Shown in pieces: positions 25,168 through 25,465 of a DNA stretch of 64,000 nt. A program made the position numbers and the translations under genes. The stretch's first letter is position 1, and every line of letters begins with the position of its first letter. This DNA is from Candidatus Aenigmatarchaeota archaeon (GTDB taxonomy: Archaea > Aenigmatarchaeota > Aenigmatarchaeia > CG10238-14 > SCSR01), in NCBI GenBank assembly GCA_038998335.1, contig JAVZHQ010000001.1, forward strand, positions 256,001 through 320,000, written 5' to 3'. Under the pieces are notes generated by a model that made no database searches, was not told the DNA's origin, and worked only from the letters and a program-made list of their open reading frames with translations.

Positions 25168-25225
25168 AATGAAATTTTAGAAAAAAAGCTTTTAAGATTG
25201 TAGCAACTCAGATAACTAAGTTCAG

Positions 25226-25370
25226 CGCCGAGGCTGGGATTTGAACCCAGAAGGGGCAAAGCCCCACCAGCTTTCTCAACTCACCTCCGACTCATCATTA
25301 GTCAGAGTCAAGCCATTTTATCATTGAAAGACTCAAGGCTGGCGCGTTAGCCAGGTTCCGCCACCTCGGC
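25226..25370 (-). tRNA. tRNA-Ser(TGA) with 59-nt intron at 37/38 (intron 25273..25331)
   Basis: Acceptor GCCGAGG/CCTCGGC with G73; anticodon arm CCAGC-CT-TGA-G|A-GCTGG; long variable arm GGGGC-TTT-GCCCC; GGTTCAAATCC T-arm; no encoded CCA. Confidence 0.92.
25273..25331 (-). ncRNA. Box C/D guide RNA encoded within the tRNA-Ser intron
   Basis: C ATGATAA, 12 nt, D' CTGA, CTA, C' ATGATGA, 12 nt, D TTGA. Confidence 0.8.
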
Positions 25371-25465
25371 TTCCTCATCTTTATTCAGACCTTGAGTCTA
25401 ATTAAAATATGAGTTTTAATTTTAAAATATTAGAACTTAAAAATTAAATTTATCAAATTAATTTT

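Follow-up and report, generated by a model that had tools for sequence, protein, structure and literature searches.

In Archaea, the textbook example of a guide RNA carried in a tRNA intron is one that modifies its own host: the intron of euryarchaeal pre-tRNA-Trp, described in Haloferax volcanii and, as sR50, in Pyrococcus, is a box C/D RNA that methylates C34 and U39 of the tRNA from which it is spliced (Clouet d'Orval 2001; Singh 2004; PMC7994747). Here we describe a 59-nt intron in a tRNA-Ser(UGA) gene of a Candidatus Aenigmatarchaeota archaeon, found in a window of 64,000 nucleotides (positions 256,001 to 320,000 of contig JAVZHQ010000001.1), and we believe it quite likely that this intron is a bona fide dual-guide box C/D small RNA (sRNA) whose substrates, as predicted from base pairing, lie in 16S rRNA and not in the host tRNA. 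The two systems have much in common: in both, a complete C/D guide occupies an intron after tRNA nucleotide 37, of the bulge-helix-bulge type in pre-tRNA-Trp and putatively so here. In both it would be made by tRNA splicing, and an RNA folded into its guide duplex could not form the splice motif at the same time. They part over host and target. The intron described here sits in tRNA-Ser(UGA), it has no complementarity to its own tRNA of the kind used at C34 and U39, and position 34 is instead the predicted target of a separate cis guide in the 5' leader, a single-guide K-loop module. The textbook case is thus self-modifying, whereas the tRNA-Ser intron would be a trans guide for the ribosomal decoding centre.

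The arrangement also resembles the intron-encoded small nucleolar RNAs (snoRNAs) of eukaryotes, which PMC7994747 mentions. There, a guide for rRNA methylation without a promoter of its own is produced from an intron of a translation gene, and the two outputs are coupled. The differences lie in the host, which here is a tRNA (and in relatives an rRNA), and in the predicted release by splicing endonuclease in place of the spliceosome and exonucleases. If our reading is right, the intron would be an archaeal counterpart of the eukaryotic intron snoRNAs, conserved across a DPANN phylum with genomes of 0.3-1.3 Mb; it would exemplify promoterless guide expression in reduced genomes, and would link tRNA splicing, wobble methylation and the late maturation of the 30S subunit.

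Closer at hand, an sRNA of Nanoarchaeum equitans (our locus L148) shares with the intron the core of the D' guide, the D' and C' boxes and a D guide containing GGAGGTG. It lies between genes, though, downstream of an AT-rich stretch that resembles a promoter; its C and D boxes match the consensus, and the D box is one base farther from GGAGGTG. In the same organism tRNA-Met provides a putative second intron case, an indication that introns of tRNAs other than tRNA-Trp can hold C/D-like RNAs. Archaeal rRNA introns, for their part, are known from the 16S and 23S genes of Thermoproteales, where they often carry homing-endonuclease open reading frames (ORFs), and a 2013 review spoke of non-coding RNAs from archaeal rRNA introns as still to be found (PMC3608112). 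The 16S insertions that we report below in relatives differ from these in that their cargo is a guide RNA against the flanking exons, with no ORF, and, if the reading holds, archaeal rRNA introns would for the first time be seen to carry a non-coding RNA. Dicistrons of tRNA and sRNA are already in print (PMC3491384, PMC7994747); of a C/D guide in a tRNA-Ser or an rRNA intron we found no report in a literature search that left supplements and subscription journals outside its reach.

The intron has the complete layout of a dual-guide C/D RNA (Table 1). The archaeal consensus is RUGAUGA for the C box and CUGA for the D box, with the kink-turn closed by a short stem, and the GA dinucleotides of the C and D boxes of the intron are intact. 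An initial annotation made from the letters of the window had read the minus-strand sequence, the four boxes and the two 12-nt guides exactly as we do, and its call of a tRNA-Ser(TGA) with a 59-nt intron is also the call of ARAGORN when introns are allowed. The box and spacing pattern has a single match in the window and none in 100 shuffles, while a relaxed regular expression for the full C/D RNA matches twice in the 1,009,365-base genome, both times in tRNA-Ser introns, and not once in any of 10 shuffles. The annotation had further proposed that the departures at C-box position 6 and D-box position 1 compensate for each other, and comparison of copies from other genomes fits this. Of 63 copies, 43 have A-T at these two positions. 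L178 has T-A there, N. equitans and Altiarchaeota have G-C, and so does family f4 (families within the order are labelled f1 to f5, the window's own being f1), if the f4 guide is counted as 13 nt. The RNP machinery that such an RNA would need, which the annotation had proposed looking for, is encoded in the genome (1.0 Mb, 33% G+C, 90% complete): fibrillarin (PF01269, 282 bits) and Nop5 (PF01798, 230 bits) are specified by adjacent genes, and L7Ae (PF01248, 109 bits) is present. The genome also encodes the splicing endonuclease EndA and RtcB.

Conservation takes the argument well beyond a single sequence. A BLAST search with the tRNA-Ser(UGA) gene as query, covering its own genome and those of 40 relatives (41 in all), returned full-length matches, intron included, at 100, 99 and 96% in the same genus, at 89% in another genus and at 70-81% in other families; it also returned, unexpectedly, intron-only matches at 85-94% in further genera. 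An exact pattern of the two guide cores occurs at 63 places in 61 of the 118 genomes of the order, and the reversed pattern, which served as the control, in none. A sequence profile of 59 copies matches 78 of the 118 genomes, including 28 of the 34 of high quality; one match (G081) lies inside an ORF and is false, which leaves 77. In nearly every genome of the order where the guide RNA is found it is single-copy. Across the 59 aligned copies the invariant columns are those of the D' guide core, the D' box, the C' box and the D guide core, whereas spacer and flanks vary, and the register of the D' guide to the D' box is exact in every copy. Boxes and guides are likewise conserved in orthologous introns, a comparison that the initial annotation had suggested.

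Both guides pair with the organism's own 16S rRNA. The D' guide makes nine Watson-Crick pairs with helix 44 (G000:C1:409068-409076), and the fifth base from the D' box pairs with the A that follows GTC (own 16S position 1425), which we take to be the equivalent of E. coli A1408. Dennis et al. (2015) give the A1408 equivalence and count this nucleotide among the predicted methylation sites of both N. equitans and S. acidocaldarius, so the intron guide places at its fifth position the same site as the published N. equitans prediction (PMC4644070). The strongest evidence comes from covariation. At 23 loci where guide and helix 44 could be read together, an A at 16S position 1410 is met by a guide T in four of four cases, and a G at that position by a guide C in 17 of 19 and by a T, a wobble pair, in the other two. 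In f4, CCATC in 16S faces GATGG in the D' guide and the duplex reaches 11 pairs; in G034, CCAGC faces CTGG. Methylation of A1408 is the best-supported of the activities that we would predict for this RNA.

The D guide makes eight pairs with the 3' end of 16S (the CACCTCC end, own positions 1539-1546), and the fifth base from the D box pairs with the first C after A at that end (own position 1542), presumably close to E. coli C1535. Duplex length was determined at 39 loci: 7 bp at three, 8 bp at 25, 9 bp at five, 10 bp at three, 12 bp at two and 14 bp at one. The two 12-bp duplexes belong to f5, and the 14-bp duplex to G006, which has an unusual 3' trailer (TTTCT x AGAAA). These long duplexes match the lineage's own 3' trailer and so extend beyond the usual mature end, which implies pairing with the precursor. 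Taken together, the 16S pairings of both guides and their covariation across lineages favour the trans-acting guide that the initial annotation had proposed on seeing no clean complementarity to the host tRNA; the latter point stands as well, neither guide having a run of more than seven pairs with its own pre-tRNA, G-T pairs included. A 23S site (2162-2173; seven Watson-Crick and two G-T pairs) was considered as a target of the D guide and set aside, since the GTT and GTA variants of relatives would break the pairing.

Table 1. Coordinates of the guide RNA, its host gene, related guide modules and the 16S insertion sites. Plain numbers are window positions; G000:C1 marks positions in the window's own genome. 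Site counts cover the 16S insertions of the first (pattern) set only.
Feature	Position	Strand	Remarks
tRNA-Ser(UGA) gene with intron	25225-25370 = G000:C1 c[281225,281370]	minus	ARAGORN, introns allowed
tRNA-Ser(UGA) 5' exon	25370-25332	minus	
tRNA-Ser(UGA) 3' exon	25272-25225	minus	
Intron, 59 nt, after tRNA position 37	25331-25273	minus	entire box C/D guide RNA
Terminal stem TTC/GAA, 3 bp	in intron 25273-25331	minus	flanks the C and D boxes
C box ATGATAA (position 6 A for G)	25324-25318	minus	from sequence; most frequent form in family f1: ATGAnAA
D' guide AATGGCTTGACT, 12 nt	25317-25306	minus	pairs with own 16S positions 1422-1430
D' box CTGA	25305-25302	minus	columns C, G and A invariant, T nearly so, in 59 aligned copies
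C' box ATGATGA	25298-25292	minus	TGA and G invariant (59 copies); internal K-loop with D' and 3-nt spacer
D guide GTCGGAGGTGAG, 12 nt	25291-25280	minus	pairs with 16S 3' end TCACCTCC
D box TTGA (position 1 T for C)	25279-25276	minus	38 of 63 copies have TTGA
5' leader module, guide TAGACTCAAGGT	25400-25389	minus	
5' leader module, D'-like box CTGA	25388-25385	minus	
5' leader module, loop ATAAA		minus	
5' leader module, C'-like GATGAGGA	25379-25372	minus	
tRNA-Leu(CAA), with mini-intron	G000:C1:569471-569588		
tRNA-Leu(UAA), with mini-intron	G000:C1:785187-785307		
tRNA-Trp, with mini-intron	G000:C1:663523-663634		
tRNA-Met, with mini-intron	G000:C1:405024-405132		
tRNA-Cys, with mini-intron	G000:C1:371540-371646		
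tRNA-Ser(CGA), 53-nt intron	G000:C1:504696-504833	minus	second complete C/D RNA, 504746-504792
16S insertion site 1	before AAGTCG		9 places
16S insertion site 2	after AAGTCGYCAC		9 places
16S insertion site 3	helix 45, after GCCGTA		16 places
16S insertion site 4	helix 45, 3' strand		1 place

The guide RNA is not confined to tRNA introns. Contexts were read for the 63 pattern places, 16 further profile matches and one truncated copy, and 35 of these are 37/38 introns of tRNA-Ser(UGA), 44 are insertions in the 3' domain of 16S and one is the false match. The four 16S sites (Table 1) all lie within about 120 nt between the guide's two 16S pairing sites (L087-L126, L221-L235). Read by eye and folded with RNAfold, the insertions are closed by helices of 9-13 bp with a 4-bp helix and 3-nt bulges, and canonical bulge-helix-bulge cuts would give a product with two extra bases relative to intron-less 16S. 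Only two genomes have two copies, G095 with both in 16S and G050 with one in 16S and one in tRNA-Ser. The former of the two G050 copies resembles that of another family, so contamination is possible; a tRNA-Ser intron copy and a 16S copy are never clearly found in one genome. Where the tRNA-Ser(UGA) gene of a 16S-copy genome was read, it has no intron (G011) or one of 12-14 nt (G024, G019), and in ten genomes with a tRNA-hosted copy the 16S gene is uninterrupted at the insertion sites. The host is tRNA-Ser in f2, f3 and f4 and mostly 16S in f5, with G104 as a tRNA-Ser exception, and it is mixed in f1, even within genera and on contigs of 215-786 kb (G074, G075, G010); some of the genus labels are less secure, since mis-binning is possible for short 16S contigs. 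The alternation between a tRNA intron and a 16S insertion beside the RNA's own targets, of which our literature search turned up no earlier description, would amount to a natural experiment on the movement of guide RNAs.

A contig of a relative, from a public run that is probably DNA, has the same leader and exons as window positions 25237-25398, with six differences and an intron of 11 nt. It looks like an empty-site allele.

Beyond the order, N. equitans and a metagenome-assembled genome of Altiarchaeota have free-standing copies whose boxes are canonical and whose two guides are those of the intron. Five weak profile matches aside, all 14 of the 14 examined outside the order lie in introns of the tRNA-Ser(UGA) type; these copies have the C box, D' guide and D' box in common and differ in the 3' half, in which a partial scan for position-39 complementarity brought up nothing clear. 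The full guide RNA is found inside 16S in G176 and G191, the latter a complete chromosome. Three bacterial pattern matches (L132, L139, L156) are GC-rich without box context and were taken as chance, and a match labelled 'Hadarchaeum' (L171) lies on a 3.1-kb contig, probably mis-binned, whose 16S is of the Aenigmatarchaeota type. In six relatives (L222, L223, L224, L225, L228, L232) a GC-rich hairpin of about 20-30 nt stands between D' and C'.

The host gene escaped both ARAGORN at default settings and Rfam at gathering thresholds, a tRNA-Gly elsewhere being their sole call in the window. In E-value mode the Rfam tRNA model does align to the interrupted gene, with an insert of 62 nt and a score of 42.3 bits (cut-off 29). 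In our manual reading of the splice motif, tRNA positions 32-35 (CTTG) and intron bases 54-57 (TGAG) form the central helix through two Watson-Crick and two G-T pairs, with bulges AG|T and AA|A and the anticodon stem as the outer helix, and once the 59 nt are taken out the anticodon loop is again one of 7 nt. The 3' strand of the central helix consists of the TGA of the D box and the G that follows, so that D-box bases supply three of its four pairs, an overlap that the initial annotation had already pointed out. Because these three bases cannot serve both, the splice helix and the terminal kink-turn would be mutually exclusive, and competition between splicing and L7Ae binding at the intron is structurally plausible.

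At the same time, several observations weigh against this interpretation. The C and D boxes of the intron are both off consensus. The best Rfam match, a full-length alignment to snoPyro_CD (RF00095), reaches 21.9 bits (E 0.018) against a cut-off of 45, and the seven archaeal C/D families of Rfam that align to the intron, all on the correct strand, stay under their cut-offs (sR2 17.7, sR5 15.1, four others weaker); the intron has C/D architecture yet is no member of the curated snoPyro_CD or sR families. Pairing statistics from the single genome are modest: shuffled guides reach the nine pairs of D' against 16S and 23S in 79 of 2000 trials and the eight pairs of D in 398 of 2000, and against 16S only, the observed pairing in 24 and 130 of 2000, respectively. 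In its own genome alone D' is thus marginal and D not significant, and the case rests on comparative data. At three further places in the genome the D' target string is matched with a single mismatch, against two at the 16S site. Methylation by the D arm in particular is weakened by the terminal D box, which is degenerate (TTAA or TAAA) in f5 (L121-L126), where the 10-12 nt beside the lost box are still perfectly complementary to the 16S 3' end, and by the spacing from GGAGGTG to the D box, which differs in N. equitans and Altiarchaeota, so that the fifth-position nucleotide is not conserved across phyla. As for splicing, two of the four central pairs are G-T, and the inner helix, weak in itself, begins with a mismatch, for which reason a strict (and noisy) bulge-helix-bulge finder did not return the canonical site of the tRNA-Ser(UGA) gene; the orthologous intron of G031 passes the same finder. 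Finally, we infer the stability of the intron, the ribonucleoprotein particle (RNP) and any methylation from sequence.

Nonetheless, a general pathway can be proposed. Consider a tRNA-Ser(UGA) gene transcribed together with its 5' leader, whose guide and K-loop would span the anticodon loop and the 5' junction. The leader duplex would direct 2'-O-methylation of U34 and then open, allowing the bulge-helix-bulge to form and EndA to excise the intron, after which RtcB would join the exons and might circularise the intron. In the precursor, three bases of the D box would be locked in the splice helix, so that the terminal kink-turn would become possible only after excision. L7Ae, Nop5 and fibrillarin would then assemble on the freed intron. 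The D' arm would methylate the ribose of the decoding-site A in helix 44, while the D arm would pair with the pre-16S 3' end and trailer and either methylate the C near 1535 or serve mainly to anchor and chaperone the RNP on the 3' domain as it is being made. Each tRNA-Ser(UGA) produced would yield one guide.

The alternative that survives best, a real possibility that we nevertheless regard as the less likely account, is that the RNA, or at least its D arm, acts mainly by pairing: an antisense chaperone or anchor, it would keep hold of the 3' tail (the anti-Shine-Dalgarno) and the 5' strand of helix 44 during late pre-16S maturation. The f5 copies, which have lost the D box and kept a perfect 12-nt complementarity, are what one might expect of such an RNA, as are the entry of the G006 duplex into the trailer, the shift of the fifth-position nucleotide between phyla, and the position of the RNA in relatives, embedded in the 16S precursor between its two pairing sites. 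A role in pairing alone is harder to reconcile with D' and C' boxes that are canonical and nearly invariant and with the exact register of the D' guide; the methyltransferase machinery has been kept in a 1-Mb genome, and A1408 was predicted independently as a methylation site (PMC4644070).

Mobility raises a different set of questions. One exciting, if rather speculative, idea is that the guide RNA is the cargo of a mobile intron whose landing sites are picked by its own base pairing, with past moves between the tRNA-Ser(UGA) intron and four or more sites in 16S. The location of all the 16S sites between the pairing sites fits insertion at the RNA level, by reverse splicing or ligation on pre-16S, followed by copying into DNA. 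The rRNA of those lineages would then carry its own intron guide and be modified by it in cis. It is quite another matter, and in our view improbable, that the RNA is nothing but selfish cargo hopping among splice-competent sites, with no function for the cell. Five host sites (tRNA-Ser and four in 16S), hosts that vary within genera on long contigs, the related contig with the same leader and tRNA and its 11-nt intron, and 16S-copy genomes with no intron or a mini-intron in tRNA-Ser(UGA) would all suit a selfish element; a selfish element would not be expected to stay single-copy in nearly every genome, nor to have guide bases that are its most conserved columns and track changes in 16S, which speaks for selection on pairing and not for mobility alone.

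A cis guide for its own tRNA, on the model of the euryarchaeal pre-tRNA-Trp intron, is suggested by the shared intron position 37/38, and we give it very little credence: the pairing with the pre-tRNA is too short, position 34 of the host is already covered by the leader guide, and the same RNA is found inside 16S genes or free-standing in other genomes. Least credible of all is a chance resemblance to C/D boxes in an AT-rich intron without guide function, which could appeal to two non-consensus boxes and to the insignificance of the D-guide pairing in a single genome and is refuted by the comparative data, with conservation far beyond that of the flanks and a homologue among the C/D sRNAs of N. 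equitans.

The preferred reading, a dual guide directed at 16S, leaves the host tRNA to the leader module. The leader guide makes 11 pairs with tRNA positions 30-37 and the first three intron bases, with U34 opposite its fifth base, and none of 2000 shuffled guides reached this run. The module is found at 10 distinct tRNA-Ser(UGA) loci of f1, f2 and f3, and its 5' end covaries with the sequence after position 37 (TCT/AGA, TCCAA/TTGGA, CTTA/TAAG, ACTA/TAGT). At seven of the 10 loci the first three intron bases are all paired with the leader; in G011, which has no intron, the leader pairs with exon positions 38-39, and in G024 an intron CC meets a leader GG. This cis guide, the 16S targets and the copies in 16S insertions of sister genera are what our analysis adds to the initial annotation.

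Similar modules are found on other tRNAs of the same genome. In five of them, introns of 31-36 nt (Table 1) consist of a guide, a YTGA-like box, a short loop and a GATGA-like box. The fifth position is nucleotide 34 in Leu(CAA), Leu(UAA), Trp and Met, making five of five with the Ser leader, and the tRNA-Cys module targets position 39 by our count. For Pyrococcus guides, the listed set of targets is nucleotide 34 of the same two Leu isoacceptors, of Met and of Trp (PMC7994747). A genome-wide regular expression for K-loop modules gives 157 matches, six of them in or beside tRNA genes against 0.63 expected; the expression is loose and was used for enrichment only. The second complete C/D RNA, in the intron of tRNA-Ser(CGA), has a D' guide that pairs with 23S 2731-2742 through eight Watson-Crick and two G-T pairs, and relatives have perfect versions in introns of tRNA-Ser(CGA) or tRNA-Ser(UGA); related copies occur in tRNA-Ser(CGA) of G015 and tRNA-Ser(UGA) of G006. 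On the speculative mobile-cargo reading, essentially all detectable C/D guide modules of this genome are carried on pre-tRNAs, two as full guides in tRNA-Ser introns and the rest as single-guide K-loop modules in a leader and in mini-introns, and tRNA splicing would in consequence gate the methylation of both ribosome and tRNA.

Some minor observations concern the same genes. ARAGORN misnames two of the mini-intron tRNAs as Ser. The core of the D' guide of the tRNA-Ser(UGA) intron, GGCTTGAC, runs in the same sense as the anticodon arm of its host, GCCTTGAG, and is alike at six of eight bases (25306-25317 versus 25332-25341, minus strand); this could hint at descent of the guide from a duplicated piece of tRNA, or the likeness could be coincidental. 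The RtcB match (G000:C1:120751-122073) has two TAA stops inside its span and may represent an interrupted gene, an intein-bearing gene or an artefact of the span. The 23S gene (G000:C1:412614-415875) is 3262 bases long against a model of 2987 positions, and therefore probably carries insertions or introns.

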